Source: Styela clava
Lineage: Eukaryota
NCBI RefSeq assembly: GCF_964204865.1
Contig: NC_135263.1
Location: 8,494,001 to 8,558,000 of the forward strand
Direction: 5' to 3'
DNA: 64,000 nucleotides
The notes under the pieces were generated by a model that had not been told where the DNA came from, ran no database searches, and was given only the letters and a program-made list of their open reading frames with translations. A program made the translations under genes and the position numbers. This document shows, piece by piece, positions 29,879-54,392 of the stretch; position 1 is the stretch's first letter; each line of letters begins with the position of its first letter.

Positions 29879-31860
29879 AATATCCACTCAGACGCGGAAT
29901 TTACTTGCCTCACGACATGTCGACTGCAAATGATTTTTTTGTTACGATAAGACTTTGCTTCTTTCATTTATTTGCTATGATGTCTTCACATTTGTTACAA
30001 TTTCTGAATAAAACGATTGCTTTAGTTTTCTAAATCAAACGCTTCTATTAAATACGGTTTTTGATTTTAGGGTTCTAAACAAAAACAATGCATTTTAAGT
30101 TTATTTTTCTGATGGCAAAACGGTGTTAATTGAAAATTATTGGATAGATTAATTGTTTCTGTGTTATGTAATATTATTGTATTCATCCGTCCTGACGTGT
30201 GGCTTTGTAGTGTAGACTGTGTTATTAGATGGTATTGTAATTTCATCCTATAATTTAAAAGTCAATTCAATGTCCAAGAATTAATATTATACGACGTCTT
30301 TATATCTACAATAATATTTGGTGCATAATTTCCTGTTATGTTATAAGTGATAATAAACGGAATCAACAACTAAACAAAGTTTTACTACGTCACTATAAAT
30401 ATGACATCATCACGAGTTTAGATTATCTTCAACAATTGCACAATTATTCAATTAAAATAATGAAAGGTAATGTATATTGGGTTTTCACTGCCCCAGAAAA
30501 CGAAATTTAAATTTTTATAATAAAAAGCCATATATTGTAATTATATAACTATATAATGAAACATGTTATTTCATTTAATATTATTTGTAATGAGCCATAT
30601 AAGACAGTATTATTTATGGTAAAATGCTTTGGGCTAATTAAAGCACTCGCAAATTATCTAGACTTTACTTTATAGGTTAAGACACTCACGGATTCCATTT
30701 TTAAAATAATTGATTACTGATTTTCTTTTGCTTCTTGTTGTATAAAACATTATTATTTTACCCTCACATTCATTGGTCTCGCTTCACTCAAATTCTCTAG
30801 ATTTACAGATTCTTGTCGCTGGTAGTTAACTCGAAAATTAGTGTTTTTGTGTATATTTTTCTATTAATTACTTTTTTGCATCTGAATAAGTCATTTATTA
30901 ACTGACATTACTTAGACAAAACTTTATTTTTCGGAAAAGATATGATGTTCTATAAATGGTTTATTTTGTTTCATTTTTGTGTGATGTAGCATCTGAAATT
31001 GTTTGATTTAAAGTTTGTTTTTTTGGTTGCATTAGTTTAATCATCAGTCAAAATTTCTGTCAAGTGAGGACTACGATATAAGCATTTCTATTTGATCTAT
31101 CTATATATGGTCCATCCTTGAAGAAGAATGAACGTTGACTGGTTACTTTATTTTAGTCACAGATGACGCCGTAAGAGATTATATTAGTAGTTCGCTGTGT
31201 GCCCTATCCCTGGAATAATAACTATTATGCCCCCGCCATACATAAATCAATCAATTTGTGTTGTTTATAATCACACAACCTATTCGGTCAGATGCGCCCC
31301 GTATTTTTTCATTTACTAATTTCGCTCAATTACCTCAAAATTGAGGTTGAAAAAACAAATTATTCAACACTAATTCGAAAAACCCTGAATATCTACTAAG
31401 ATTTTCCCCAAATTTAAGTTTTGTTCACATAGGCCAACTCCTATGTTGCATTTAAGTTGTTATTTACTGAACGTTTTTGCTTCTTATTTTTTTGTAGATG
31501 TGCTCAATGTAAATATTGCTTTATTAACCCATGCATAGAAATTCAATAATCGATCAAGGATGGCCAAGCACAATTGTACAAATCTCACAAAATTGAAATG
31601 AATTTAGACAATTATATCAAATTAAAGCTTGGCCATATTTGATTTGTCATGGAATTTTTAGGAAATTTTTTGAATATATTTTCTTGTTTCTTTAGAAACT
31701 ACATACGCATCACATTGCACTTATTTTTGTAGTTTCGGTCAAAAAATGATCATTGTGGACACAGTAACGGCGTTTCCAGTCAATACTTGTCCCAATTGAT
31801 CAAATTATGATCGTTTTTTTTTTTTTTTCCAGTGTTAAATTTATCTCGTTTTGCGAGAAA

Positions 31861-31874
31861 CTTGCCATGGTAAC
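31861..31874. promoter_or_regulatory. Near-consensus RFX X-box
   Basis: CTTGCCATGGTAAC versus GTTGCCATGGYAAC consensus, about 2 kb downstream of the tektin-3 stop. Confidence 0.4.
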
Positions 31875-33704
31875 AATGTGTGAAACAAAATGCAAGTACA
31901 CCAAGTCATACGTGTTTCAAGTTTAATTGAAGATGAATTTTCTGCTGGGTTGTTTTTATTGTTTATTGTGAATATTAGTATGCCATATTTAGAAAATAAA
32001 ATTTCTGGGATAAGAAGTCCCGTATGGTATATCCCCAGTCCATTGCACGATGTAGAACTGCCCGAAGTTTGTCAAAATGAAACATTTTGTCTGCATTTTT
32101 CTGATTGTATTATTTTAGGAAAAATCCCACATATTTGCTTGCTCATGAAGCACGTCCAGTAATGGAGATCCAAGCAAAAAAATGAAATGAACGAACTGTA
32201 AATTAAATAGCTTATGAAGTCGTTTGTTTCATTTACACTCGTAAGTACCATATACTTTTTATATAGACTGATATTATCACCGTTTTGCTATAATTTTATG
32301 TAATAAAAAAGGATTTTTATAAGAAAAACGTCGGGTCCTAAGTTTTTTTGAGGTATTGTATAGAGTAGGTATGTCAGGAAACTTTACTCTACAGAAACCA
32401 TACCCAGCTTCGTGGACAGAAAGCGCCAAATCAAAATGCTTGTGGTAAAAGCTGAAATAAAACTTGCCTGATAATCAAAGCAATCACGGATAACCTACTG
32501 AAGTCCCAAACTTTATTGCAATCCCTGCTACATTTTGGCACGAGATGCCCCTGCTTTTCCCGCACTCCAAACAACATTGCCTTCCTTAGATAAATTTAAA
32601 TTTACAATGAGTGTTTTCGTTACTGCTCAATGCTCATGTAAAATCGTGTTTTGAAAATGAGAGCATGATAACAGTGCCCATTCAAAAAAGCATGTGGTAC
32701 TGATACAATGGATATTTTTTGTTGAAAATTGAATAAAAATTCAGTTATCATATTGGCTCGAAATTTTCTCAATTTCCATATTTTTTGCTTGTGTTTTGTC
32801 CAGTTTCAGAGATTAGTAAGTTATGGTAGCTCGATTCTTAAAACTATAACACGTAGACATGAAAGTAAGAGCTGTTAGCTGCAGTGTTCTACCCAAGTAT
32901 ATACCGATCATGAGAAGGGTATACAACTTGAAAATGGTGTACGAAGATTGCACAGTCTAAATTAGGCTTCTAAACTGTAATATAATAAACATATTTTCAA
33001 TTGGAGACAACAATGCAAATGCTGCACATGGTTGCTTTGCTGTTTTACATTAATTAAAAGGAAAACGCCTGACTGCCTCCGCCAAGCAGATACAAACTCG
33101 CTGCTCAATTTAGGAATTGAGAGGTTTGCCTGCAAGGACGTGCGATCGGCAGGATGTTTACGTCAGGGTCATTTTGCGATGCTTTAGGAACTTGAGCATA
33201 CCGATACAATAAAATTTATATTGGGAAACATGAATATAACATCGAGTAATTCCGACTCATGTCGAGATCAAATCGAATAACTTCCGATGCTTCATGATTT
33301 CGAATGGAAATTTGTAATCGGATCGGAAGGATTTATTTAACTTAAAACTAAAGAATATTTAGAATGAATTGAGTAAAAACACAGAACAAGTAAATGTTAC
33401 TAATTAAACAAGTACCCCCCCTATAGGGGGCGACTTCTACTACACTACATGGGTCGGCATTAATAAGATGAACAAAAGAGCAATGCCCAAATATATGGAC
33501 ATGAAGATCAAAGCGAAGTAGTGTCAAATCGTCCACAGTATCACTGAATGCGAATAATTGTGAACTGTTCTTTTTCTGTTTTAATATAGCAGTAATGTTA
33601 AAGTAAAAGCTTAGAAAACGGTCTAAGTGAGATTTCCCCCAGAGATTTCACTACACCGACTATACGCCATCTTACTGTCGGTAAACATCACGGCACGGAG
33701 TTTC

Positions 33705-35627
33705 AACCTTGATATATTTCATATTAGAGTTTGAATTCTGTCACCATTGATGAGGTTTCAAGAGATTTACAATTAATACCGAAAATATATTTAGGAATGA
33801 CATAATGATGAGATTTTGTTAATGTATATATATATATATACAATGATGCGTGTACTATACAAGAAATGTTATGAGTATAATTTACATAATACGAAATGAC
33901 AATAATACGAAATGTCACTAATGTAGACTTATAAGACTTTCAAATATCGACATTGCTTTCCTGCATTTATCTTCTGTTTCAGCAATGAATAAAACGTGGT
34001 CGTTCGCGCCATGCATCTCTGCCACATAGACATCTACACACGAGGTTTTAGTCAGACGAATCGCATCGGCAAGTCGCTGACTTCCAATCACGCTCTTGTA
34101 CCGGTAGTGCTTCTTCAAATCATAAGTTTCTTGAGGTGTGTTATACTCAGCGTGGTTATAAAGCTTTTGAAATTCATCAATTGCAGAGTCTGGGTTAAAC
34201 TTGCGGTCAGGTGAAAGGCGATGTAGTCGAATGTTCAAACAATCACCAATTGTTTGAGTATCCAATCGCACACCGTTCGAAGCCCTGTATAATAATATGA
34301 ATAGAAAAAATGATGAAACAGTATTTTATTTGTATTCAATAATAGCCAGTTAGAGCTCAATAGATGCAACAAGGTTGTTTACTGCCAAATGGTGAAAACA
34401 GTTGGATAAAGCAAAAAGTACAAAGAAAAGAGTCTGGAGTTTTGATCTATGTTTGTCTTAATCACAAATGAAGATGAATATTTCGCAGTGGTCTCACTTA
34501 ATCTCCGAATCAAAACTTTGAATATTCTGTTGATACATTGTGCACAGATTCATTTGAAAATACAAATATATGGAAATATATGGATATTATACCATTGACG
34601 ATATTCTCACCAAATTCTGTCGAGTGTACTGCGTCGAGTAAGTTCAAGATATCCAAAAATATCTTTGTCGACAGAAATCATATTTTCATCATTCTTATCA
34701 GTGGGTCCGCCTGAATTAGCTAAATAAAATATGAAAAGATTAGGTACAAATCCACACAAATGACATAGATTTAGAAAAAGTTCCACCGTAGAAATATACG
34801 TCTATGTGACACGATATAGGAGAAACAGCGCCTCTGTGTGATGCCGAATTTCAGTTTGCACTTACCGGCATTTAATTTTATTAAATTTTTTATAACTGAA
34901 AAAAGTCCAATAAAATCGCATCTATCAACAATTTACACTAATTAGCTACCTTGATTTGGGCCATTCGTCATTTTTTCTCGATCCAGAAAGTGTTTGAACA
35001 TGTCCAACGCCATCCTGCATTTTTCGTGGTTCGGAGCAGTGAATATAATGTTGCATGGTGAATCATGCACTCGATCCATGTGTACTTGAGGAAACTCAGG
35101 ACGAAGACTAGCAAAAATTCTTTCCAGTGCTTCATTAGGTAAATTCGAATCGAATTTGGTCGTATCCTGAGCGACAGAATTTGAAACTTTTTCATAAAGA
35201 TCCTTCAAAGATTTTTCTGCTTTTTTAGGGTTTCCATCTGAAGTTGTAGGAGTGAGATTAATTTTGGACTTGTCGCCCATCACAGATTCGTTCATGTCAA
35301 CGTCGAATTTTTTCCTAAAAATATATGTATATAAATTGTGTAGGCAAATAAGACTCTACATTAACGAACATCTGTGTTTGTTAAATTGTGAAAACGTTAT
35401 TACTTTCTCAGTGATTATCATAGCTTACCTACCTGGTTTACTACTTTTGTTCAAAATCCATTAAAATTAGGAAAGGTTTTCGATGACCATAAGAATTGTA
35501 TTGAACAACCAACCAAATAGTATCAAGGAAATATATAATGTTTCTCACTTAATATCATCCAAATCCGAAGAATGAACAAGTTTCTTATATGCGAACATAT
35601 CCTTATCTATCACAGTTGATACAACTT
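33705..35627 (-). repeat. Segmental duplicate of 41284-43308 (3' half of the RRM-KH gene, including introns and 3'UTR)
   Basis: Collinear exons and recognisable introns (e.g. ATCATAGCTTACCTAC, ACTACTTTTGTTCAAAATCCATT, GAATTTCAGTTTGCACT, CTTGATATATTTCA); similarity stops abruptly at TACAACTT 35627 / 43308. Confidence 0.92.
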
Positions 35628-38600
35628 TAAAGAATTTTGCAAAAAAACACTAATATATTTAATCAATGAAGTGTATCTCACAGTAATAAAAATAAAACAG
35701 TGAATTTCAAAATTTATGGTCCCAATTTTGAGTCTTAGTAGCACAATGAATTTTCTGAAGATTTTGCGGACTTGACAAGGGTACATGAATATTTATGGTT
35801 TCTTACTTGATATTATTCAAGTCCCAAGAGTGCACGAGTTTCATATATGCAAACATATCATGATCTAGGACAGTCGATACGATTTCTTTATATACTGGCA
35901 GATTCGATGATGTCTGTGAAACAAGCATTGCACCTGGACAATAAGAAAATAAGATAAGATACAAATTTTAACGCATAATTCATCTGAAACCTTCTTGTTC
36001 AAAGCGGGCACGTCTACATTAACATTTATGCAAATTTTTGAATATGATATTTGGTTGTAGACAATACTATTGAAACACAAACAATCCGGATACGTCGTTG
36101 GCATGCATCGATCGTTATATAATCCTTTGCAATTTTTATTTTATTGGAACCTTGTTACAAAAAATGAGAAAAAGGATTGCAAGCAGCTAAAGCAACAATG
36201 AACTATGGCTTCAGCACTATTCTCACTAACCTGCACTTGTAGAACTGTTCTCAGGTTCAAATGAGTCCGAATCAGATGCTACAATGTTCATGCTGTCCAT
36301 TACAGACATACTTATGGCATGACAGCACTCAAGACACGTCTTGACGATTTTCTGAATAAATATAAATTGAAGAGGTTGTTATGGAATAATTGCGAATACG
36401 ATTAATATAATCATCTGGAATATAACCTTCAAGATAGCATGTTACATACTTTTATTTCAATAAATAAATATTTACTTATCGAATAGTGCTCAAACCTTTT
36501 TTTCAATCAAGAATCTCCTATAATTGAGAGGAACTTTCTGTAGATCCACATAATGATCCAATTTCTTCAGTACTTTTTTGCGATCAGATGCTTTGTGTTC
36601 TATCCATGTTATTAATGCCTTCAGCTTCATTTTTTCTGATGCCTTCGGTAAAAAAAATGTGAGTTATAACTGCATGCATGCATAATTAATTCATTTGACA
36701 AAACACGTGTTTCAAGATTTTGTTTAAAACCATTTTTTTTTACCAGTTTGACTCCTATTGCTTAGATTTTAGAATATTGATATGTTAGAACGAAATAAGA
36801 AAACTCGCGCTTTGGTTGGCCGTGGATATTGATGTTCCGAGTTTCATCTCAAATAGGCTCGAGTATGAAGCGCTATAAGGTTGTCTCAAAATAAATTTAT
36901 ACTTGTTTAGTTGTTTCTACAAAAAACTACCTTCATTATAGGAAAAAATTATTTTTATGTATTATTCCAGCGAATTTATGAGCATTACCATAAAAATAAG
37001 TAGCAAAAATGGTGTTTTTAAAACAGAGGGCTATTGACCAATGTTAATAAATTTGAAGCCAAGCTATAGCTGTTTTTTGTACATAACATACTTCCATTAT
37101 TTTTTTGCAATGTCTTCTTATTTACATAATTATACTGGTTGGTTAAAATAATGTAGCATGCTCAATACCTTATTGTCTTGGCATTTGATCATATCAATTA
37201 TATCCTTTTCTTCGATGAATTTGAACTCTTCCTTATTTGAAATTTTCTCAAAATTCTTCATTGCAAATATTTTCCCTTTTTCCTCCAATATTTTGCAACC
37301 ATAAAGATTCGCGATTTTCATCGTAACGAAATATGAGTTTTCATCAAGGTTTTCTTCGAGAGAATTTGTAATTCCATCGACAACTTCTAATAGTTATCGA
37401 TAAAAACAAGATATTTTTAATGTGTTATTGACTAATTGTCATATATAGGCCTATATTTTTTGCAATATATATTGTCGTTTTATTCTATTTGATTCAAGAG
37501 TCTTTCTGCGCGCTAACACAAATGTATTTCTGTAGCATTCCTTCTGACCTCGGTTACAGAAATACATTCGTGTTAGTGTGCAGCAACACTCTTGAATCAA
37601 ATAGAATAGTCATCCTCACTCTTGCTTCAACATCCTCACATTATACGGATACACTTGCACAAAGGCATAGAGCATGGAAATGTAGTAAGTTCCACGTAAC
37701 CCCAAATGATAGTTCTCGCTTTATGCTGTTAAATATGTTCCTTTTAACTTCGTATTATAGAATCATAAAATCGATATAAACAAATATCTGCGAAAACCAA
37801 GAGATAAACACACAAAGAAGAAGCACGTACTTCTTAGCTGTATGAATTGAGCCACATTCATCAAGGATTCGGCGTTCTCAATTGTTGTAGATAATTCACC
37901 GGTGTAGATATATTCTATACATTGTTTCAGGCATACTGGATCCACTCCTTTAATCTCCACTCTGCCGGATTGAGTTTCAACATTCTTCCAAACAACAGAT
38001 GAACAATCAAATTATCATTCTGTATTGTCGTACAATTAACATTCTCTAATCCTAATGCATATAATTCGAAACTTTTTTGGGGCTTTTTTTCAATATATTT
38101 AATGGATAACAATTACGGTGCCCAAAATATAAATTTTTGTTGTCGTAATTTCCACACTGTTCACCTATTAATCGCAGGTTTACGTAATTTGAATACAATA
38201 CAATCTTACGAGAAAACTTTGTTGCACATGAGCCGTGATCGATATATTGAGAAAATAAAAAATGCCAACAATAATAAACCCACATCATGAGAAAGCATAG
38301 CTTTGAAGTAATCAGATCCAGCCGATATGACATTCTTGTGCACCGGGATTTCTTCTGTACCAGCTATAATAGTGAAATCGCAATGCAGCTTCGATTCATT
38401 TCTGTATCTTATATTCAAAAAATTAAATCAAAGTCACGTTTTTCAATAATGGAAAGTTTGGCATAAACTAAGGAAACATATTTGGCCACACTAAAGAATG
38501 ACGGTATGCTCTGGAACAAAATAAAATCCATGGTCAAGTGGAAGAAATAACTTGCAAAATTGCTTTAACTTCTGGCAAAACTGAAGTCGAGAATCGCAAG

Positions 38601-38899
38601 AGAGCATATCACATTAGCATTGCCAACACCTCAAAAATCCAAGGTCATAAATCCTCAGAAAAGAATAAACAAAGTAAGTAAAATAAGAGAGGAATAAAGG
38701 GATAGTAAAAACACGTGAAATGAACGACAAGTTCGAGAAGTAGTTTGAAAGAATTTCCCGATGTTCATATAGACTAACAATTTTTGATAGCCGTTTCCTA
38801 ATTAAAAAAATTATATTTCAGTAATAAAACAAACCTGTTCAATTCCTCCAACATTTCTTTTGCATGATTATCATCATTTACACCGATTTTTACAGACAT
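33918..38899 (-). CDS. Chimeric BTB-BACK plus RBM43/DTX3L-type KH-like protein, about 596 aa, no Kelch repeats
   Basis: Exons 38899-38835, 38401-38284, 37984-37831, 37386-37169, 36642-36496, 36351-36231, 35933-35807, 35314-34950, 34719-34611, 34284-33918; all GT-AG and phase-compatible, 1791 nt with no internal stop. BTB: HAKEMLEELNRNESKLHCDFTIIAGTEEIPVHKNVISAGSDYFKAMLSH..IEYIYTGEL; BACK: FAMKNFEKI..SEKMKLKALITWIEHK..R; then KH-like modules, exon 8 about 86% identical in protein to the neighbouring gene. Confidence 0.8.
35549..35624 (-). other. Second copy of the chimera junction exon (candidate mutually exclusive exon or remnant)
   Basis: 76 nt, AAG acceptor / GTGAG donor, phase 1 to 2, encodes VSTVIDKDMFAYKKLVHSSDLDDIK; 2 nt different from the donor gene. 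Confidence 0.55.
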
Positions 38900-39284
38900 C
38901 ACACATAGATTTTATAAATAAAACTTTTAATTACACAGGTTTAACTAAATGGAAAAATAATTATAGATAGCAATTATATTGATTTTTGAAATTGCACAGT
39001 GCCATTTTTTTCGGATGCAAAGTATTTCATTGTCTGCCATCTTGAACAGCACTAACAAATAAATGTGATGCTGCTCAAGATATATAGTGACAATACCGGC
39101 AAGATGGAAGTTAAAGAAAATGGCAAGAACAGGGCAAATAAACCAGACCTCACCAAATACATAGAATATTGAGACACTTACACGGGACAGGATTTCGACC
39201 AGGGTGGTTCAAAGTTGTCGGCATCTAGGGCCACAAAATCATTTTTACATTGTTCGCGGACAACCTTGGACCTGCGCTAAAATT

Positions 39285-39969
39285 TAGGGCTGGGAATGGT
39301 TAATTTTAGATGGTTAACGGTTACGATTTATTTTAACCGTTAAAGTCAACTGACATTTCAGGTACAAATCATCTTTATATTGTACAATTCCTTCAAAAAT
39401 GATAACGTCATCGCAAATTTATCTCCTGTGGCGTTTAATTCGAAAGAATATCACTAACTAACTGTATTGGTAACGACCCAATGAATGTGAACAATAATTG
39501 AAGTACCAAGATTGCTGATTATGAAAATTTGACAATGATATTTCCAGAATCAGTTTTTGGTCAAAATATATTGTTCACGATTTTATTGCAAAATCGTATA
39601 TTCAATGTCATCCAACAAGTGCGCAGTTGATGCTGTTTTCCTTTATGATATCTTAAAGTAGAATTAGCACATCGAACATGGAAAATCACATTGTCACATA
39701 AATGACATTTAATACCGGAATCGGGTTTTACGAAAATACTACGATATGTTCGAACCACGCTGAATATCTCTTGCAGCAGAGCGATCACGAAACTATCTTG
39801 ATTCCTGAATAATTTTGAGCGATACCGGGATAAGATCAAGCGAAATGGCTTTGTTTCCATTGTAACAAGCTGAAATTATAAATTATTACGTGAAACGTCA
39901 CGCCTAGGGTAACCGGTTAATTTTACCCGGTTAACGGTTAAAGTGTTTTCCCTGGAATTCCCAGCCATA
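39285..39969 (-). mobile_element. hAT deletion derivative with BED zinc-finger remnant
   Basis: TIR TAGGGCTGGGAAT / ATTCCCAGCCATA; subterminal GGTTAA/CGGTTA repeats; GCGCTAA on both flanks; ORF 39561-39860 has KCHLCDNV...STLRYHKGKQH (BED C2H2 pattern). Confidence 0.7.
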
Positions 39970-41508
39970 GCGCTAATAGATTCCTCCTCACTCAATATTT
40001 AGTTTTATTTTAGCGCGGATATTCCGACTGAAAAACTAGTTAACAATTTAGGCTAGCCAAGAATACTATTCAACTTCGCTGGTTGATTCATCTTTTCTTC
40101 TGTAGTTAGATAAGCTTCTCTCGGTTAAACGGACTTTGTTTGAGACGAGGTATTGTAAATTATGTATTATATATGACCAGCAACACACTACTCCACTCTT
40201 TGTACGCAAACCAAACATACGATTAGTCAAATATTAAATTTCAGATTGGTAACGTATAAATTGTACATATACATCGAGACGATTCGTACATTTATCATTG
40301 ATATTATATCATTACTTTACACTGTGCAATATACATAAATTACATTGGCAGGAACAGACAATGATGACAACGACTCCGGGTGTGGCATAATAAATGTATT
40401 CTGTACTTTAATTAGGCTTCGTGTAGGCCAATATGTACTGAGAATACTTGCATCGATCATGTTAATAGCAACAGGGGAGCAATGCTCCACATTATGGACA
40501 GCATGACACGCTCAACGCTCACTGTCAGTCCCCTTTTTTCTTCCTAATTCGCATTTCGAATGAAACTCAAACTAGGACTTCAAAGTGTTCGATCAAACCC
40601 TGATTCAGATATGTATTTCTGAAATGTTTTTTCCGCCATTCAACAAAAAATATGAGTATATATTACTGATATATTTATCAAAATATGAATCCATCTTTAA
40701 TTATGGTGTACGATGACTTCTACAATTAATCATTAACGAAGTCGTTATTGCCTAATAAAAGAATATTGGAAAACGCTACAAAATAGCGATAGTTGTTAAC
40801 GATAGCGATAGTATTTTAAATGGGATATTAGATCAGGCGGTATTTTGTTATCTTTATAAAGTGAAAAACGTATTGTTAACACAAATTGTTGAAGTATCTT
40901 ACCTATGAACCCCATTCATGTTATTGGCTCCGGGCTAAAACGAAATGTCGTACAGTGCTACACGAGCCGTTGTAATTAAGTAATATATGCGAAAAACTCC
41001 TTGCAGATATTTGAACAAAAATTGAATTATATGTAAATTCTCTCAGGACTTCGCAATTTCAAAATTCTATTCTTAGAACGTCATTCTCGTAAACGTAAGT
41101 TTGTGAAGAAACTTTTCTTCGCAAAAGTCTATTTGATAAAGCATATAGCACTGAGAGTGACTTTAAAAGGCTCCTTCAGCTTTACGATTGGTTCATACTT
41201 GGACTTCTTAACCTTGGGCTATTTTCTTTAGGACTATGTATCTTCTTACTCTTTAAACTACGGTACCCACGACAAGTAAATCTAATCTTGATATATTTCA
41301 GATATAAATTTGAATTTTTTCATTACTGAAAAAATAATCGATGGTTTTATAGATACAGGAATTCATTGGTTTAAGTGATTTACAATTAATTTCCAAAATA
41401 AATTTATGAAAGACTCATTAAATTTATGCCGATGAAGATACAATTATACGTATAGAATACAATGTTAGTGGTATAATTCACTTTGACAAATGACAATCAT
41501 ACAAAATG

Positions 41509-44500
41509 TCATTTATTTTGACTTAAAAGTCTTTCAAATGTCGACATTGCTCTTTTGTATTTATCTTTTGTTTCAGCAATGAATAAAACGTGGTCGTTTG
41601 AGCCATGCATCTCTGCCACGTAAACATCTGCACACGAGCTTTTAGTCAGACGTATCGCTTCGGTAAGTTGCCGACTCCCAATCACACTCTTGTAGCGCTC
41701 CTTCAAATCATAGGTGCCTTGAGGTGTTTTTTCCTGAGCGTAGTTATAAAGCTTCTGGAATTCATCAATTGCAGAATCTGGGTCAAACTTATGGTCAGCT
41801 GATAGACGATGTAGTCGTATGTTCAAACAATCACCAATTGTTTGAGTATCCAATCGCACACCGTTCGAGCCCCTGTATAATAATATGAGCTCAGCTAGAG
41901 CTATTCTAGATCTCAATACATACAACAAGGTTGCTTACTACTCAATGACGATTATAGTTGGATAAAGCAAAAAGCACATTAAATACGGAAAGTTTTAATA
42001 AAATTCGATCGATTGGCATCCATCGATATTTAAATTTGATCAAATTTTTGTTTTAGTCAGGCTCAATCACAATAGAACATGCATATTTCACATTGGTCTC
42101 ACATGGTCATGCAAATATAAGATTACGCTTAATCTCCGCATTAAAACTTTGAATAATCTGTTGATACGTTGTGTCTATGGAAAAACTTTACCATTAACGA
42201 TATTCTCACCAAATTCTATCGAGTGTACTGCGTCGAGTAAGTTCAAGATATCCAAAAATATCTGTGTCGACAGAAATCATATTTTTATCTTTCTCACCAG
42301 TGGGTCCACCTGAATTGCCTAAATAAAATATGAAAAGATTCAGTATAAACTATAAATTCACTGAAATTACATAGATTTAGAAAAAAATTTAGAATCGTAG
42401 AAATATACGAGTATGTAAATTGTAAAACATCACAGGAAAAATATCCCCCTTATGTGGTGTAGAATTTCAGTTTGCACTCACCCGGACTCAACTTTATTAA
42501 ATTATTTATAACTAAAAAAGTCCAATACATTCGTATATATGAGCAATATACACTAATTAGCTACCTTGATTCGGGTTATTCATCATTTTTTCTCGATCCA
42601 GAAAGTGTTTGAACATGTCCAACGCCATCCTGCATTTTTCTTGATTCGGGGCAGTGAATATGATGGTGCATGGTGAATCATGTACTCGATCCATGTGTAC
42701 TTGGGGAAACTCGGGACGAAGACTAGCGAAAATTCCTTCCAGTGCTTCTTTAGTTAAATTCGAATCGATTTTGGTTGTATCTTGAGCGACAGAATTTGAA
42801 ACTTTATCATGAAGAGCATTCAAAGATTTTTCCGCTTTTTTAGGGTTTCCATCTGAAGTTGTAGGAGTGAGAACAATTTTGGATGCGTCGCCCACCACAT
42901 TTTCGTTCATGCCAACGTCGAATTTCTTTCTAAAATTATATAAATATATATATATTGTGTTGGCATATAAGATTTATTTATTATGCCAAGAACACTAATT
43001 TATCCATAGATAAAGATATCTGAATTAAGGAGCATCTATGTTGTTAAATTGTGGCCTTGGCAAACATTATTAATTTTAACTTTTCAGTTATTGATCATAG
43101 CTTACCTACATGGTTACTACTTTTGTTCAAAATCCATTTATTTTAAAGTAACAAACGTTTTCGATGGCCATAAAAATTGTACTGGACAACCAACCAAATA
43201 GTATCAAGGAAATAAATACGGTTTCTCACTTGATATCATCCAAATCCGAAGAATGAACAAGTTTCATATATGCGAACATATCCTTATCTATCACAGTTGA
43301 TACAACTTCCTGGGTTTTGATTGGTTGATGTGGTTGTTGTTGTTGTGGAGTAGGCATTACTACTGGCTGGAGCGGAATGCTGGGGACCTCGTGAAACACA
43401 TTTCTTGACAAATAACCACTTTCTGGAGCCATTTTAGGTCCCATATTATCCAGATTTTGTGATATCATATTTTCAATTCTTTCAAAAACGGCTTGCATTT
43501 GATACCATTCACCTGAAAATGCAATATACTTGAAATACTGATTGTTTAGGTCAATACATCCAAAACTGGAACAAAACATGAATTTCAAGAATTCCCCAGA
43601 TTAGAGAAAACAAAAATGAAAGTCGTTCGTTATTTGTTTTAATGACACTCTGCTTTACATATTACCACGTCCTATATTAATAGCATTATTTTATGAAGTC
43701 ATGCTTATCTGCTTAACATTCATACTCAACCAATTTTATAGAAGCAGTACCTTCAGCATTATACCCTTGTCCACTGCCCACGGGAGTGATATTGCACCCA
43801 GTGGAATCCATGATACTTTCAAGTTCATCTTCGACATCGCCAGATTTGATTTTTAACTGTTGAATGACGTAGTCGGATATTTTCGCGGTGACAGTCTCGA
43901 ATATTCGTGGCTGCCAAAATGATGAATATAACGAATGGACCTCAAATATATTATAACCCCCAGTTGTTAACGGACAAAACTCTTAGATTTTATTATTGAG
44001 AAAATTGACATGAAATCTACACTAACCAAGGTTGCGACTATGGGACCATTATGAATGAGGTCTGAATATGACTAACAAGTAAAAATACACGCAGAAATTT
44101 AAAATACTTACTTACGCCTTTATTAAATTTTGATATCGAATCAATCAATCGAATCGTTTTTTTATTAGCCATGCGGGAAAAGCACAATAAAATGAAAAGC
44201 AAGAGAAATCCCGGAATATAGGTATATGTATATATAATCTTGACTTGGCCCAGAATGGACACGATAACATCGAAATGACTTCGGTTTATTTGTCAGCGGC
44301 TATCTTGCAATAACTGTTATAATGAATAAAACAATACAAAGTTACCACAACGCAAACGCTTTTATGTTGACAGTTATGCTATCCTATTTTGTAATTATAA
44401 TTCTATTTTATTTATATACGATTCCAACCCGCAGTTATAGTTATAACATAATAGTGTGTGTTATTAAAGAACACGAGGTACCTACAACATTGGTTTCAGC

Positions 44501-45332
44501 GGGGGCAAACATCAATATTCATTTCACCGGACGTGTCTAGATGCTTCACTTAGGTTTAAAACAAACAAACCCATATAATCGTGCTCAATGCTCACCATCG
44601 TTTGATTACTTACCCGCGGTTGCAGAGGGCTTACAGAAACTGTCTTCCCCGCTATTTTGTGTGTGTGTTGAAGAACGGACGGAACAGCTGAAAATCGAAA
44701 ATATTTGTAATATAGTTATCAGCTCTAGCCATTAGCAAAGTATGATAATACATTCATTTTCAATAGGTAATCACGTTGATACTTTTTGTAATCGCTAGCC
44801 AATCACGTATGCGAGTGACGCTTTGTTTGCCCATCGTACATAATGGCGAAACACAGTCAATATTTCGCGATTACGTGACGACTGAAGCGAAGCCATGTCC
44901 ATACTGTATTACAAAATGAAACACGTAGCAAATTGGTCGATTATGAAGCCTTTCCTTCCGTAACAAAATAACTTTGCTGACGAATATCTACGTTTCCGTG
45001 AATTTAGGCCTGACATAAAATGACGTCATAGTTTTGCCAGTCGCTATCTGTTAATTATTTGTTCGCGGCGGTGTTTGGCGCTCAGAGTTGGTCTGGCATA
45101 CGATGTGAAACTACCGTTATCTGTACTTACTTTCTTGCTCTTCAAAGGTGATTATTGCAGTATCACTCTCTTGGTTTGATAAGGGAAAAGTCACTGATTG
45201 AACGTCACCCCCGCCGACATTTTTCTTTTTCTGGAAGTAGATCGTAAGTTTGTCCGAACTAACGTTCGATGGAATGCCTTTAACGACTATTTTATTCGAG
45301 GTAATATCTTGGCTTGGCGTCGAACTAGCCAT
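41509..45332 (-). CDS. RBM43-like / DTX3L-N-terminus-like RRM plus KH-like protein, about 518 aa
   Basis: Exons 45332-45131, 44687-44614, 43910-43751, 43512-43230, 42929-42565, 42318-42210, 41872-41509 (1557 nt, in frame). RRM KIVVKGIP..KLTIYFQKKKNVGGGDVQSVTFP..AIITFEE of the PARP14/RBM43/DTX3L type; RIFETVTAKI, EGEW and two [IV]DxD[MI]FxY motifs resemble RBM43 as I recall it (KIFSSVNAIL, EGSF, LDTDVFLY). Confidence 0.8.
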
Positions 45333-46315
45333 AGTTGCCGAAATCCTCGACTATAATGCAACAAATACCTATAGACGTTACAAAAGAAACGGTCGATAAA
45401 AGCTGTGCGTTGAGAATATCAACGGACAAACTTCCTGTTCTTGCTGCGCATTGATCCGTGTAGTCTCAGTCATGGGGATTTCCCCAGGTATCGGGTGCGT
45501 AGCTTTACGCGAGACTTCACCTACATTGCTCAACAGACTCTGGTACTCGTTTGACTTATCTCCGACCAATAAGACGGGCAAAATACATTTATGCAGAGAT
45601 GGCGCGCACACGATGTGAAAAACAACGTTCTGATCGTGTTGTAATTTGGATTTTTACCTCCGACTTCCATGTGGACTACATGCAATCGCCCATTAGCAAA
45701 TCTGTAGTATAACTATATTCGTAAGAAACGCTGACTTACGACGAACACAAATAAATAAGCGCACATGAAGCATAATTTCGCGGCCATATTGAATCTCTAT
45801 CCCACTGCTACTAATTATCATGGAAGTGTTTGTATTGCAAGGTGACTTTTCGTACGCAGTGTGCGATAAAGTAATAAAAGCAAGCTGCAAAAGCGCAAAT
45901 GGCAAGGACACGGCAGTAATTCGAAAAAAAAAATTCTTCATGAGTGTGTATGGTAACTAATCTATCTCAAGATGCAATCATTACAATGCAAACCAACAAC
46001 TTCACAACAGAAAGATAACTCAGTTGCAGACATCGTTTATTTTGTACAAACTACCAATATAGGACAATATCGAGGAACTTCCCCCTTATGTTAATCTACC
46101 CAAAGAAATCCCTTCAGACATAAAAGAAACCCAAAAGATGGTTAATTTTTCAACAGAAAATTGGTATAACTGCTTTCAAGCAAATCATGATAAAAAATAT
46201 TGAATTCAAGTTAGTATGATTAACCAGGAATGAACCAATTACAGCCAAAAAAGTGATTCCAACAGACGTTCCCTGGGGATATGAGGCACAATGACAATGT
46301 TTCTCAGTTTTCTCT

Positions 46316-49300
46316 TTAGTCTGACTCGCTGCCACTTTCTCCACCTTCAGATTCATGAACGTTCATCTCTAATTTGTATTCTTGATCACACCCCATGAAA
46401 GCATCACTCATGAAGTACAAGGTGTAAGAATGAGTGCCGGCTGATGGTGGGATAAAATCTAGTTTGACCTGAACACACAAAAAGAACCATTAATGTTAAA
46501 ACTCTCGCCCGTAAACGACTTTGAATTCCTTCAAACAACCACCAATAAGGAGAGCAGAAAAAAATGTCTTTCAAGCCCAGTTGTGTCTATAGATATAGGA
46601 ATTGTTGGGACTTTCAGGTCAGAGAATTCTTTTTAGATCCCATGTCATGGTAAATATCTCAACCAAATCTTATACACCAAATCAAACCTTTTAAAATGTT
46701 AGAAAAATAACAGAAAAAATCCCACTGAGCAAGGTGTACATACATGTGCTTATAAACGAGTGGAATCATTTACCATTTTTGTTTTGTTGAATGTAGTATT
46801 AAAAGAAAATATATAGACCATACCTTCGCCTTTTGCTGCAGAGTTAGCCGTTTGATGGAAATAAGGCTGTTGGTCTTGGGATCTCCAACAACCACCCACC
46901 ATCCTTCCTCACGTTTTTGAGGGAAGAAAGGTGCAATTACTGGTCCAGATACTTCATCTTCTCTTTCCAAAGTAACAACCACAACAACTGGATGACCTCT
47001 GAAGAAATTAGTAAAAGTTAATAGAGTCAAAATTTGATAATGATTGTACAATTGCAATCATACAATTACAAAGCACTGTTTCGTTTATAATTATAAAACA
47101 ATGTTGTTATAGGCTCAAATGCACATTCTAGCTGACAACCTTAGAAAATTATTGGCTACTTATTTTTTGGGAATATTACAAGGGCCATATAAGCTTGGCA
47201 CAATTTGGGCCAGAAAATACTGAGTACTTCCAGCATATCTAATAACAAAATGTGATAAGTAGATGACATTTGAATAGATAGATTTGTTTTGTCAAAAAAA
47301 ATAATGATAAATGAACCTACGCTCTTAAATTATCGTCGTCCAATACATCATAAGTCAGTTCAATATTTGGGTATCTATTGCAAAATCTTGCAACATCGGC
47401 CATCTGTGGTTCCGTCATTCCCAATAAGGAATTTCTGTCATCATCTTCCATCTCTAATATGTCGAAAACACTTTCAATGTCCTGATAAAAAAATCATTTT
47501 TAGAATATTAATTAGAATTGACTGTTTCAAAAAATGTACCCATAACATCAAACAGTTATAGCTGTTAAGTGTTATGAACTGCTACATAAATAAGACAATT
47601 CGAATTATACTCTAACACCAACCTTTTCTGTGCATCTTCTGATAACATTTGGATCAAAGTGTGGTAACTGCTTCAAATAAGAATCCTTGCTCCACATTGC
47701 TTGTGTCACCATTTGTGCAAGTTCCATGGCAGCTAGTGCAGGTGACAACCAACCATTTGATGATAAAACATCAACACAGGCTTGAATCAAACGAACAGAT
47801 TTGCTCAATATACCCTCAGTGTCAGATTGAAGTTCAGCGGGAAGTTGAAGCCGAGACAAATGTGCCTAAAAGAGAAAGATGAAATTAAACGTTTGACAAT
47901 GTATTTGTGTAAATGTGAAGTTAAAATAAGTTAATGACAGCTTTTATCAAAAATTATGAATAATAATATGAATTCAGTGCCCTATTATTACTCAGTATAG
48001 AAAATGTTTATAGAGTTATCAATCAGACCTGCAGAAGCAAGTTAGTCTTGATATGTGGATCGGTGAATCTAACATTCTGTGGTTTGTATGGAACTTTATC
48101 CAGAAGTTGTTTGAGAGTTCCATCTTCTCGATGGCGTATTTGTATTGCTTCATATTCTGCCGCATTGCTGATAATTTCTATCAATCCACGAATCTTGGTT
48201 TTGGCATTCAAAGACATACTGAACAGCTCTATAGTGGTGTAGTTGATATAGTAGTAAGCAGAAATCATAGCCAGATTCAGAGGTGAAACATCCATGTCAT
48301 CTTCTATCGCAATACACTTAGACTGCTCCAAGTCAGAAAGTGTGTTTTCAACAAGCTCTGACAAGCTGTCAGAAAGATGACGATGTGAAACTCCCTGGAA
48401 AATAATAAAATATTGGGTGATTGAATGAGTGATTTCTACTTCATAATATGCCCATGTAGTTGTTTATTGCTTGATTTGAAAATGTTTTTTCTACCATAAT
48501 ACAGCAAAACAACAATATGGTTTGAAATTTAAAAAAGTTCTAAGAGATACATTTTGTGTGCATAAGATTATGATTTATTTAATATTAGCTCATTTAACAA
48601 GACCTGTAGATAGCAATATTGAAGAATATATTTCAGCCACTCCATACTAAATATTAGTGTAAGGCTGTGCTTATTTGTTGCAACTAACTTTTGCAACCTG
48701 AAAAGCAATATTAGAAAGCACACATTGTGAGTCATGCTTCACAATAAAAATAATACTCAACTGTCGTCGAGTACCCCTGGAAATCTACCAATAAACCCTT
48801 GGCGACTCATAATCACCGGTTTAAAATATCTAATATATAAAACCTGCATGCATCATCATATCTCACCTGCAAATTATAATAATTTGGATTCTGAGTCATC
48901 CTACGATACAAGAAAGTCCATGTCATGTAATCAACTGCATCCTGTTTGTTTTCTATTGTTTTGGTGACAATTTCAGCATTGAAGTGATCATGTAAGCAAT
49001 GATCAAGATGAGATTCTACAGGCAGGGGTTCGTAGACAAATTTCTTGAAAAAATCTTTTTTCGAGCCTTGACACATGATCACACATTTTCCTTCTTCATC
49101 CTTGAGAGGTCGATTTGCTCTTCCGATCATCTGAAGTACATCGGTAACAGGATAGTCAACATAAGCATGAATTTTTCCATTGTAGTATTGGGTGTCCATC
49201 ACAATTACTAAGTGAGCAGATACAGTCAATGCCCAACACAAGCTACGTGATGCTACAAGTATTTGAACAGCTCCTGATGAAAATAACTGATCAACGACTT

Positions 49301-52300
49301 TTCTTTCCATCTCTGTTGTGCCATCGTGTAAATAAGCTACACCATTCGACAGTGTCTCCTTTAATGTATCATCATTCACATGTTCCAAGTATGGAGCCAG
49401 ATCTTCTTCTTTGCAATGGAGGAACTTTTGGGGTTGTCCATCAGCTGCGGCAAATGTTAACATGTCAACAGCACTAAGTTTCGATTGCTTACGAGAAGTA
49501 ACAAATATGATGACAGATCGTTTCGGGGAATGTTTAACAACTGCATTGTACACTGGTTTTGACATACTTAGCAATCTTGACTGAGCATGACTAATGTTGA
49601 AGCCTTGAATATGGATTTCCAAAGGAACTGGTCGGACATTCGGATGGAAGTTAAAAGTGTGAGTGGCACTGCAACCCAACCACTGAGCAACATCCTTTGC
49701 GTTTGCAAGAGAAGATCCGAGAGCTACAATCCTGATTTGTCGCTCAAGTTGAGAAGAGACATATCGCATTCTTGAGCAAACAACTTCTAATTCAGGTCCT
49801 GCTTCACCTCCAATCAGATGAATCTCATCGACAATGAATAACGAGACATTTTGCACATTTTTCCTTTGCTTCCATCTTCTAGAAAGAACATCCCATTTCT
49901 CTGGAGTAGACACTACAATATTTCCTTTGGCAATGAGCTTAAGATCAGTGCTTGTTTCACCAGTTAGTAGGACAACACGTTTGCCAAGATGAATTTCAAA
50001 TTTTTCTCTCCAATCTTGATAAACAATTTCAGCAAGAGCATCCATTGGAGTGACATAAACACATCTGGCTTCAGGATTAACTGCCAATGCATGCATGAGT
50101 GCAAATTCAGCACAAACAGTTTTCCCACTACCGGTTGGAGCTCCAATAAAGATGTTATCATCACTATTATACAAAGCATTGAAAACTTGTGTCTGAATAG
50201 GGTTAAAGCATGGAAACTTATCTTCAAAAAGTGCTTCAAATTCTGGGTTTCTGAGAGCAGATACGGGCAAAGGTTGGAGGTCAAGTAACTCTGTTGGTGG
50301 AGGGTATTTCTCAGGAAGAATGAGATGACGGAAAGATACCGGGAGTTGTGTTTCTGATGATAACCACCTATCTGACACAATTCGAATGAAATATTGTGGT
50401 GGAAGTGGTTCAAATACAGGCACAAAGAAGTTGACAATATGTTCATCCGTAGAATACTTGTTTTTGAGCAGAAAATATTCATGGTGGAGAATTATTTCGC
50501 TGTCGACATCTTCCACAAATATCCAAAATGCTTCTGAAGACCTGTGAGTGTTTTCATTCCATTGAAAATCCGGAGTGATAGTGAGTTCCACTCGAAGAGT
50601 TGATCTGGTAATTGGTTGGATGTGAACAGACAATTCCATCTTTGGAAATTGATGTATAAGTTTGTGAAGAACTCTCCCCATTTTTGGCATCCTGATGAGC
50701 TCTCCAATTTCATTATGATTCAAGTCATAGAAACGTTCCCAGGGAAAGTTTTTTTTTTCAATTTTTTTAACCACCTCATCTGGTACTTTCTTGAATTGAC
50801 GCAATGGACTCATTGACTGCCACATTCTACTTTGTATCATTTTGCACAATGATAGACATTTATCAGTAAGTTGGGCCCAACCTCTATAAAGCACAATTTC
50901 AAAAATAGCTCTCATCAGTCGACCAGCAGACTGTGTTACGTAGACCATATCAGCCATCAATGCAAACCCTTCCAATTTGAGCTGTGAGATGTAAGTTTGC
51001 AATAAAACATTAATTTTGGCAGTCGGCTCATCTATTCCTTCTTTGACTGGAATAGGCACTCGTTCCAAAAGCTTTTGCAGTTCCAATTTTTCTTCTTCAC
51101 GAACTGCTATGTATTTGAACTCAGAAGAAAGTGAAAAAACTCGAAACAATTCAATCTCACTCAGAGTAGGTTTCAGTAGTTGGTTGTATGTTGCCATGCT
51201 CTCATGGGTGCAGTAATAATGACTAGCAATCCGGCCCAAATCTGTCACTTGCAAGTGCCCAGTTTTTCTATCATATTTGACTAAATTGCTTTTATCTAAT
51301 ATGTTTGCAGCAGAATGAATCAAGTCAACACGATGTTGTTGTAAAAGAGGATCAGCCTTTAGTGCATCATGACTTATGGAGTATAAAGTAGGCTGTCGAA
51401 GCATTCTAATGTACAGGTAACTGTACCCAAGCCAGTTCACAGCATCTCTGACATTCTGAACATTACCCAGCACAATTTCAGCATTCAGCATATCTGGCAG
51501 TTTGGCAACCATTTGACTTTCTACAGGCAATTGTTGATTCAAAAGCGACAAGTAATATTGCAATTCACTATGGGATGTAATAAGAACACCTTCACCCTTG
51601 GTGTCATATTGTGGCCTACCAGCTCGTCCCATCATCTGAAGTACATCAAGTGCACCCAATTCAACCCATCTACCTTTTTCTGGACTGTACACTTGTGTGC
51701 CTTTGATGATGACAGTATGAGCAGGTAAGTTGACACCCCAAGCAAGTGTGGCTGTTGAAACAAGTACCTGAATATGACGATCAGCAAATAAATCTTCAAC
51801 CAATGTTCTGTCAACTCTTGACATTCCAGCATGATGGATTGCGAAACCGTATGGCAGAAGATCTTTCAATTCTAAATTCTTTACTTGCTCAGATTCTGTT
51901 CGTAAAACTTCTGTGGAAGCGGATCCTTCTCTCAAAAAATGTCCTAGAGTGTCATTTTCCAAGCACATATCTCTAACAGCACGAGCAGTTTTTCCAGTTT
52001 CTTTTCGTGAATGAACAAAAATCAGAACTTGATTTTTACCTGCATTTTCAACAACTTTTTCATAAACAATTTCATTCATAACCTGAAACCTCTTGATTGC
52101 TTTCTTTTCTGTTATGCCAATGTATTGCTGTTCTAAAGGACATGGTCTAAAACTGTTGTCAAAGAAGAACAACCCTTTGGAGGGATCAACACGCAAGAAT
52201 GTGGCAACATCTTCATAATTTGGTAAAGTAGCAGAAAGTCCAACAAGTCTGACATCCTCTTGAGTTGTTTCGATGGATCTAATTGTCCTTGCAACAACAG

Positions 52301-54203
52301 ACTCCAGGACAGGACCACGATCATCATGAAGCATGTGGATCTCGTCAATAATCAACAGACGTACCAGCTGTGTGTATGTTCGTTCACCACCTTTTCTTGT
52401 CACAATATCCCATTTTTCCGGTGTGCAGACAATAATTTGTGTGGCATTGATTTCTTCTTTGCAAAGCTGATGATCACCTGTCATTTCACTGACTTTGATG
52501 CCATAAGCGGCAAGCCGTTTTCCGAAATTTCCAACCATTTCTTGTACCAGTGATCTCATTGGAGCGATGTATATTATTTTAAAATCATTAACATTAATCG
52601 TTCCATCAGAATTGATGTGCTTGCCAATTTCTCTCAACATAGTCAAGAGTGCAACATTTGTTTTTCCAGCACCAGTGGGGGCACACAGCAAAATATTCTC
52701 ATCACTTTCTAGTGTAGTCTTGGAAAGTCTACTCTGAATCCTGTTCAAACTTTTAAACCCTTCAAAAGCCGCTTGGGCATACTTGGGTAAAGTATCAATT
52801 GGAACAAGTTTTTCATCATCAGCAAAAACTTTTGGTTTTAAAGCAGGTACATGCACTTCTTCGTAACCTTTACGTTGTTTGCGATAAGAACCATCTGGTA
52901 ACTGGCATTTTTTATTTGCCATCAAGTGAGATCCTTGTTCAAACATGATATCTTCAAGATCAACCCCTTTGCTTGGCTGTAAAGTTTCATCTGTCTGGTC
53001 AGTTTCCATTGCTTCTAGATCAGCATCAACTTTGCTTCTGCGTAATCTTTCTCTGCGTTCTTGTTCTTCTTTAATGATATCTTCTTTCTCAGTTTCGTTC
53101 AGTTGCTGGAGAATCACTGACAATTCTTGATCGTTCTTCATTCTATCTTCAATTTGTTTTTTTGCAGCTTCACTTTGTGCACTCGCAAGTAAAGTGCAAT
53201 ATAGAATCATTTGTCGATGTTCACGCAAAATTTTGATAAAATCAAACTGATTGAAACCGAGCAACATTACCAATTGATTTTCACATTGTAAATCATCAAC
53301 CGCAGTCTTTAAAATTTCCAAGACTTCTTCTGCCTTTTTTTGCGAAACGATTGCATCATCATAAACTTTGCTCAAATTTCTTTGCAGCCAATAAGCATCA
53401 ACATCGCGAGGATGTAGTCCACGATTCTTAATGATATTGACATTTCCGGCTTCGTTGGTAAGATTAGCAGAAACAACCATATTCGCATCTGCCTCTACGC
53501 CACCTTCTTCATCATCATCTTCATTTTCAGATTCCTCCTGAACTTCACCATACCTGTTTTCTTGGTCTTCTTCTTCATCATCCGATTCAAACTGGACGTT
53601 GACACCATATGTTTCATCAATGTTATCATCTGCGGTTTCAGCATCCTTATCTGTGCCGAAGTCGGTAATCTTTTTGCCCAAATTTACCAAAACATGATAG
53701 CGAGTATCTTCTTGAACTCCCAACAGTGATTGAACTTCTTTTCGTCTTTCCTTATCACGCAGTTTATCATTCTTAAGAACAATTATCACTTCGTCAGCTG
53801 CGCCACAAAGAATGTCTCTTGGTTGGTCACCCAATGCAGCCTGGATAAAGCTGAGTAAAATCTCGTACGTTTCTCTAGTTTCTTTTGTTTTTGGTTTATA
53901 TAATATATTAACCATCTCATCCATTCCCTCAGATAACAGAGTTGCTCCTTTCAATTTCACAGAAGATTTTTGATCCTCGTCACGCTTGTATCGCTTTGCT
54001 CGACGCTCTTCCATCTGTGGTGGTCTTGTACGCTGCGCTCTATCACCCATTTTTGATCCAGTTAATTTTCCCTGCAATGAGATGACTTCTCCTGTCGGCT
54101 CATCTCTTGGTCGTCTATCAATGAGTGATCTGTCTGCTTGCAATACAAGATTAGAATTGGCTTTGTATTCATATTGCAGTGAACGGGCGGAGGCATCCGC
54201 CAT
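46316..54203 (-). CDS. SNRNP200: U5 snRNP 200-kDa helicase (Brr2), 2144 aa
   Basis: Exons 54203-48867, 48394-48029, 47865-47623, 47481-47321, 46998-46824, 46468-46316 (6435 nt); N-terminus [21 protein letters not shown]; two Ski2-like cassettes ([12 protein letters not shown] and [12 protein letters not shown]); Sec63 C-terminus [13 protein letters not shown]; AATAAA at 46036-46041 (-). Confidence 0.98.
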
Positions 54204-54392
54204 GCTGTTTTTTTATTGACAGCGATTCCTCTACAGATTTAATATATCTGTGGTAAAACATAAATAATAACATGTGAAAACGGTTGATGCAGTTTTTCTA
54301 AACAAATTCAACTAGCAAAGCATATTGTATGTATTGCCCCACTCATAACCTCCGTCTAATAGTAATTTATGTGATTCTGCACAACAGTCTTA

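Follow-up and report, generated by a model that had tools for sequence, protein, structure and literature searches.

A predicted fusion of a BTB-BACK module to a duplicated KH-domain block, beside a DTX3L-like RRM-KH gene, in the ascidian Styela clava

The stretch of the Styela clava genome analysed here (64,000 nucleotides of contig NC_135263.1, hereafter the window) contains two co-oriented neighbouring genes on the minus strand: an RRM-KH gene, here called the parent, and downstream of it a predicted fusion gene, here called the chimera, in which a BTB-BACK module precedes a second copy of the KH2 to KH5 block of the parent. The parent has seven exons (45332-41512, plus the stop codon) encoding 518 amino acids, and is identical to RefSeq XP_039265072.2 (LOC120340778). 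The downstream gene can be read as ten exons (38899-33918), all bounded by GT-AG introns and forming a single open frame of 596 codons, or 598 when the RNA-supported acceptor at 38407 is used. The fused transcript probably exists, and its product may, on a tentative reading, act on the partners of the parent as an adaptor or decoy, dimerised through BTB and restricted to this lineage. An initial annotation, made from the sequence alone, had recognised both neighbours, whose shared orientation and limits were confirmed, and had proposed that the chimera assembles with the parent itself.

The block shared by the two genes is one 2-kb duplication (33754-35627 against 41368-43308), with 87-92% identity in exons and 81-82% in introns, and the similarity of the chimera to the parent begins at parent residue 212. 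Exon 8 of the chimera differs from exon 5 of the parent at 17 of 121 residues, or 15-17 in each window of 115 residues, in agreement with the 16 substitutions in 115 amino acids that had been counted before. What had been overlooked is that the chimera carries the tail of parent exon 4 twice, the second time as exon 7b (35624-35549), likewise in frame. A protein search with exon 8 returned two proteins among 73 candidates, both of them from S. clava, and no Rfam match was found within the window.

The N-terminal part of the chimera is a BTB-BACK module, open and complete over residues 12-246, for which the best solved relative is KLHL3 (E 1.3e-25); BTB (PF00651) scores 76 bits over residues 23-128 and BACK (PF07707) 45.1 bits over residues 138-228. 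Coding exon 1 (38835..38899) supplies the ATG and the start of BTB, which continues through exon 2 (38284..38407, its acceptor taken from RNA) and exon 3 (37831..37984); exon 4 (37169..37386) contains the end of BTB, the 3-box and part of BACK, exon 5 (36496..36642) more of BACK, and exon 6 (36231..36351) its end and a Ser-rich linker, with no Kelch repeats after it. A Kelch propeller was found neither by Pfam scan in the two pieces into which RefSeq divides the gene nor by eye in any frame of 30000-33900. Exon 7a (35807..35933) encodes a linker and an old copy of the parent exon-4 tail, and exon 7b (35549..35624) is an in-frame alternative to it. Exon 8 (34950..35314) then encodes the remainder of KH2 and KH3, exon 9 (34611..34719) a linker and the start of KH4, and exon 10 (33918..34284) KH4, KH5 and the stop codon. 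The 3' region (33337..33917) has poly(A)-type hexamers at 33585 and 33337 and is partly covered by low-depth contigs (record 7 of run X2 and record 13 of run X3, described below). Two repeats were also noted at this gene: a MITE-like (miniature inverted-repeat transposable element) inverted repeat of 128 bp in intron 3 (37481-37608; 54-nucleotide arms, 91% complementary, high contig depth), and a multi-copy transposon-like sequence upstream of the first exon (39285-39966), at which loose ends are numerous in each of the four runs.

At the N-terminus of the parent there is an RRM instead, encoded by exon 1 (45131..45332, with the ATG and the first part of RRM/NID) and exon 2 (44614..44687, the RRM end), so that the two N-termini differ as the initial annotation had stated: RRM_PARP14_3 (58.9 bits against a cut-off of 24) and NID in the parent, BTB and BACK in the chimera. 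The RRM fold is clear (Z 13.4, root-mean-square deviation 1.3, 74 residues aligned), and the domain is NMI/IFI35-like, with NMI as its best solved relative (E 7e-13). No aromatic residues were found at the ribonucleoprotein positions RNP1 and RNP2 of its sequence, judged by the RNP consensus. Precomputed domains for the whole parent protein, given without positions, are PF07292 (NID/RRM) and PF26774 (KH_I_RBM43). Exon 3 (43751..43910) encodes most of KH1, in the position of KHL1/D2 of DTX3L, and is missing from the chimera. Exon 4 (43230..43512) encodes the last helix of KH1, a disordered P/Q linker and beta1-alpha1-alpha2 of KH2, the duplicated block beginning at about 43308; exon 5 (42565..42929) the remainder of KH2 and KH3; exon 6 (42210..42318) a linker and the start of KH4; and exon 7 (41509..41872) the remainder of KH4, KH5 and the stop codon. 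No RING or DTC domain was found in the parent by Pfam scan, and the open frame stops after KH5.

The shared KH-like block was confirmed. An AlphaFold model of the parent (from an alignment of 16 sequences; predicted local distance difference test score, pLDDT, 82) contains the RRM (10-90) and five KH-type beta/alpha units (95-168, 216-286, 288-357, 375-446 and 449-517), laid out as KH1, a disordered linker, KH2-KH3 (216-357) and KH4-KH5 (375-517), whereas the KH_DTX3L profile matches parent residues 220-321 below its curated cut-off (E 3.4e-5) and exon 8 alone at E 0.11. Fold searches with the full parent returned RRMs almost throughout. No GXXG motif is in place between helices 1 and 2 of any KH domain: G-x-x-G occurs in the parent only at 362 and 366, in the linker, and at 399, at the end of helix 2, and is absent from the chimera. 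When two copies of parent residues 92-518 were submitted to complex prediction, the score was 0.31 against a mark of 0.32, with the alignment not used and no interface given, and this speaks neither for nor against pairing. About 140 bp upstream of the parent ATG lies a palindromic NF-kB-like site (45474-45485), 16 nucleotides past the end of an X1 contig at 45458; the pattern has six matches in the window, three of them at this site, against 1.63 expected, which is weak.

Splicing was examined in contigs of four runs (X1, X2, X3 and X6) from three studies, chosen from 13 rows of which nine were guessed to be RNA; the four are themselves guessed to be RNA, no run being recorded as such, and their contigs skip GT-AG introns; contig depth is a poor measure for ranking genes. 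The parent joint 44687-45131 is present in all four runs. Each of the five introns of the BTB-BACK part is skipped in three or four of them, the joint of coding exon 1 in three and that of exons 2 and 3 in all four. The exit from exon 7a is approached through X1, whose first record extends 139 letters past exon 6. The depth of the bin 35784-36197 is 3.10, corresponding to 126 letters at the depth of that record, that is, to exon 7a plus one G, which is the first base of both the 7a donor and exon 8; read-through of the donor would give 3.47. Thus the X1 contig leaves the genome at the 7a donor and does not run on to the stop codon used by RefSeq. Runs X2 and X3 cover about 100 and 69 letters of the same bin at the depth of the BTB contigs. 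The exon 6-7a splice is likewise suggested by contig arithmetic, and the 7a-8 splice is inferred. Missing cover proves nothing, neither of exon 7a in X6 nor of exon 10 beyond its first 33-53 nucleotides in the high-depth contigs.

The two copies of the parent exon-4 tail are both in frame and of very different age: 7a is identical to the parent at 64 of 79 nucleotides (81%), and 7b at 77 of 79 (over 35549-35627). Between 7a and the parent the ratio of non-synonymous to synonymous substitution (dN/dS, or omega) is 0.12 over 27 codons, with dS about 1. Of the conditioned simulations of a neutral 7a lineage, 8 of 76, 2 of 93 and 0 of 79 matched this value with the parent omega set to 0, and 2 of 74, 0 of 75 and 0 of 58 with it set to 0.1; the 7a tail has been constrained at the protein level, and long-term constraint is evident on this 27-codon tail only. 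Exon 7a encodes beta1-alpha1-alpha2 of KH2 (model elements 216-242). Measured on the parent, the copies 7a and 7b begin at almost one and the same position (43308/43309), despite unrelated upstream flanks. An origin of the two by tandem duplication was considered and rejected, the upstream flanks scoring no better than shuffles (164 of 300).

Exons 8-10 differ from the parent with dS 0.21 and omega 0.41 (bootstrap 0.26-0.66). The 7b-type tail is joined to exon 8 at depths of 181 in X1 and 469 in X6, where the parent's own joint has depths of 234 and 350 and the BTB contigs 10-11. Contigs of X2 and X6 are identical to exon 8 over 253 nucleotides, in which the parent of the window differs at 20 sites, and the X6 contig is at parent-level depth. 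X6 also has a divergent end of exon 2 (44615-44643) spliced to parent exon 3, differing at 5 of 29 nucleotides and 4 of 9 residues; it lies outside the duplicated block and is either a deep allele or an unplaced paralog. Among the variants at high depth in X1, eight of the nine codons listed are changed non-synonymously, which fits a fast-changing KH2-3. Taken at their simplest, these hints point to deep divergence among mosaic alleles of the parent, with 7b to exon 10 either recently copied from one such allele or exchanging sequence with them. An old fusion, dated by 7a, would then have had its 3' block (7b to exon 10) replaced or refreshed later from a parent allele. The dN/dS check on the shared exons that had been suggested was run and proved confounded: an omega of 0.41 is compatible with a neutral lineage, and the exon-8 sequence is found in contigs at parent-level depth, so dN/dS cannot show selection on the chimera. 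The exons of the block have one indel (6 nucleotides, in frame) in 838 nucleotides, against 25 in 723 intron nucleotides, and on the reading just given this clean frame may have been kept in the parent. Attempts to polarise the amino-acid differences with four outgroups were uninformative (4-8 usable sites each).

If the fusion is translated, its likely role may be considered in the light of DTX3L, the part of which before the RING is described as one RRM and five KH-like domains (PMC11080071; PMC13224862). DTX3L homo-oligomerises through KHL1/D2 (PMC11080071; PMC10955461), by an interface described as conserved only in amniotes (PMC10955461), and its KH2-5 region is a hub that binds PARP14 and PARP9 (PMC11251020; PMC11080071). 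We propose that a KLHL-type BTB-BACK gene was deprived of its Kelch propeller and, through local duplication, acquired the KH2-KH5 block of the gene next to it, an old ascidian RRM-KH gene that resembles RBM43 or the DTX3L N-terminus and has no catalytic domain. BTB would dimerise the chimera, standing in for the missing KH1, and the chimeric KH2-5 would bind the partners of the parent KH2-5, which by homology would be macro-PARPs like PARP14 and PARP9. The chimera could then be a low-level brake on the pathway of these partners, through their Cul3-mediated ubiquitination or, if its Cul3-binding motif is too weak, through their sequestration. It would act beside the parent and in competition with it, with no need to bind it; the partners of the parent are a more likely target than its own product.

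The contacts through which the chimera would bind Cul3 are partly conserved. In KLHL3, mutation of A77, M78 or E85 is reported to abolish Cul3 binding, and the phi residue of the phi-x-E motif (M83) is reported to bury most surface on Cul3 (PMC3616122). The chimera keeps the equivalents of A77, M78 and E85. The KLHL3 residues M83-S84-E85 align with N-V-E, which spans the joint of exons 2 and 3, so that phi is Asn. At this joint (37984-37987) the RefSeq BTB model has an extra Lys that is lacking with the acceptor of the window and in the RNA joint of all four runs; the extra Lys leaves phi unchanged as Asn.

The reading of the chimera as an adaptor or decoy has a good deal against it, much of which speaks for a different account, that the downstream gene is a passenger or decaying duplicate: a truncated KLHL paralog, either in a 320-residue form or as an obsolete fusion, followed by a young copy (7b to exon 10) of a divergent parent allele, which would owe its intact state to its youth alone. 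RefSeq annotates two proteins in place of the chimera, a BTB-BACK protein of 320 amino acids that passes through the 7a donor to a stop codon and a KH fragment of 273 amino acids that starts inside exon 8 and lacks exactly those elements of KH2 that 7a encodes (a single-sequence model of this fragment, with pLDDT 40 and a best fold match of Z 5.8 among a mixture of KH and unrelated folds, was not used as evidence). The joints 6-7a and 7a-8 are not among the joints listed, the listing leaving out eight, and the final 13 letters of the X1 record, past the 7a donor, are unread. In the single BTB contig of X6 the last 30 nucleotides of exon 4 (37169-37198) are replaced by four letters, for a net change of -26 and a stop codon at residue 198, and nine of the 11 changed codons listed are non-synonymous; this contig may have arisen through faulty alignment, or it may come from a paralog or from a null allele. 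In simulations of a neutral chimera lineage beside a constrained parent, the omega of exons 8-10 fits in 111 of 192 cases when the rate is lowest and in 25 of 155 and 3 of 88 when it is raised, and the open frame of these exons may be inherited from a parent allele. To this may be added the exon-8-identical contigs of X2 and X6, the near identity of 7b to the parent, and Asn in the phi position. A fused BTB+KH relative was found neither among the 73 exon-8 candidates, nor among 7999 candidates of a KH-pair profile (four matches), nor among the 18 representatives scanned of 150 listed, although such searches are weak for absence; and the partners are named by homology only, through a KH_DTX3L match below its cut-off. 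The passenger account, a strong rival though the less likely of the two, has against it that the 7a tail has been constrained over a dS of about 1, the X1 contig splices out of 7a instead of running to the stop, and BTB-BACK is open, complete and spliced in all four runs.

Less probable is the pair first proposed, in which the shared KH domains hold chimera and parent together and the chimera either delivers Cul3 to the target of the RRM or degrades the parent, like a split DTX3L. The analogy with DTX3L is apt in architecture, as the parent has the layout that precedes the RING and the chimera adds an N-terminus of Cul3-adaptor type; both genes are spliced in the same four runs, and KH-like domains tend to pair (PMC11080071). 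The mechanism finds no support. DTX3L self-association maps to KH1/D2, which the chimera lacks; the RRM is NMI/IFI35-like and without RNP aromatics, and the KH domains are without GXXG, so that a sensor is not evident; Cul3 recruitment as envisaged meets with Asn at phi; and S. clava already has a separate, intact RRM-KH-macro-RING-DTC protein (LOC120331836). Without a KH1 dimeriser and with no evident nucleic-acid sensor to borrow, assembly of the chimera with the parent through the shared block becomes less likely, and the pair as a whole is quite unlikely. Depending on the run, parent-type contigs are between about 1 and 75 times as deep as BTB contigs, which, over four runs, is no more than a hint against a fixed stoichiometry.

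A mosaic of assembly or haplotypes, in which 7b to exon 10 would have come to lie behind the BTB gene as the terminal part of a paralog or of a different haplotype of the parent, has in its favour that the abundant exon-8 contigs behave as parent alleles and that X6 has a divergent exon-2 end outside the duplicated block. It is very improbable: of the words sampled from 33900-39000, a share of 0.76-0.95 is present in four runs whose kind is not recorded and which may stem from the sample that was assembled, the 3' region proper to the chimera has low-depth contig cover, and no second full-length RRM-KH protein of the parent type appeared in the exon-8 or KH-pair-profile searches.

An adaptor or decoy could be taken further, to a DTX3L-like ligase rebuilt by S. 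clava in Cullin-3 format, with BTB in place of KH1, Cul3-Rbx1 in place of RING-DTC, the KH2-5 hub directed at PARP14/PARP9-like immune proteins, and the KH block refreshed from a highly polymorphic parent (7a being old, 7b to exon 10 recent and the alleles mosaic), so that the degrader tracks the changing partner specificity of the parent; this extension is unlikely. Should the chimera be translated and active, it would be a natural swap of the substrate module of a Cul3 adaptor between neighbouring genes, and, by isolating the KH2-5 hub from KH1 and RING-DTC, it would offer a clean test of hub binding in an invertebrate chordate generally held to lack interferons. As a passenger, it would be no more than a young chimera of the ordinary sort at a polymorphic locus. 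The locus is in addition a caution on dN/dS computed between a parent and its tandem partial copy, which can be misleading where parent alleles have diverged deeply.

The remainder of the window contains genes of other kinds. Directly upstream of the parent, on the minus strand, is a helicase gene (46770-54212) with a single open frame of 1799 codons and unusually few introns for the region, which we take to be Brr2/SNRNP200-like. Exons at 58424-62054, also on the minus strand, presumably belong to a topoisomerase I-like gene. On the plus strand, what we assume to be a tektin-like gene has its last exon at up to 29878.

Among known systems, human DTX3L (BBAP) is closest to the parent in its RRM and its 1+2+2 arrangement of five KH-like domains (PMC11080071), and to the chimera in the joining of a KH2-5 block to a module of ubiquitin-ligase type. 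The parent differs from it in having no RING-DTC, and the chimera in having neither RRM nor KH1, with an N-terminal BTB-BACK in place of the C-terminal RING-DTC. Neither the literature nor the proteins searched yielded a BTB-BACK module fused to KH domains of the DTX3L type. The Cul3 adaptors of the KLHL/KBTBD kind (KLHL3, KLHL11, gigaxonin) share with the chimera a complete BTB, 3-box and BACK, but the chimera has KH2-5 in place of the Kelch propeller, and Asn at phi. It is a variant of the BTB-BACK adaptor kind, its architecture so far known from one species and its signs of constraint mixed. In MEX3-like proteins KH domains are likewise joined to a ubiquitination module, namely RNA-binding KH domains with GXXG to a RING; the KH domains of the chimera have no GXXG, and its link to ubiquitin ligation would be Cul3.

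The parent alone is better compared with RBM43, which it resembles in having NID/RRM followed by KH_I_RBM43 (by the precomputed Pfam domains) and no catalytic domain, and from which it differs in its 518 amino acids with two KH pairs and in the absence of RBM43_C (PF28453) from the precomputed domains; Atlas matches (0.83-0.85, and all below 0.9) serve as leads only. Ciona intestinalis LOC100186427 resembles the parent in its RRM, KH1, KH pairs and lack of a catalytic domain, at 22-23% identity, and differs in having three KH pairs instead of two, with no BTB fusion in either isoform listed. Its isoform X2 starts at KH1, so that a form of this family without the RRM is annotated in another ascidian as well. 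With a relative of the same kind in Ciona, the parent is an ascidian gene of long standing and, like RBM43, one that functions with no catalytic domain.

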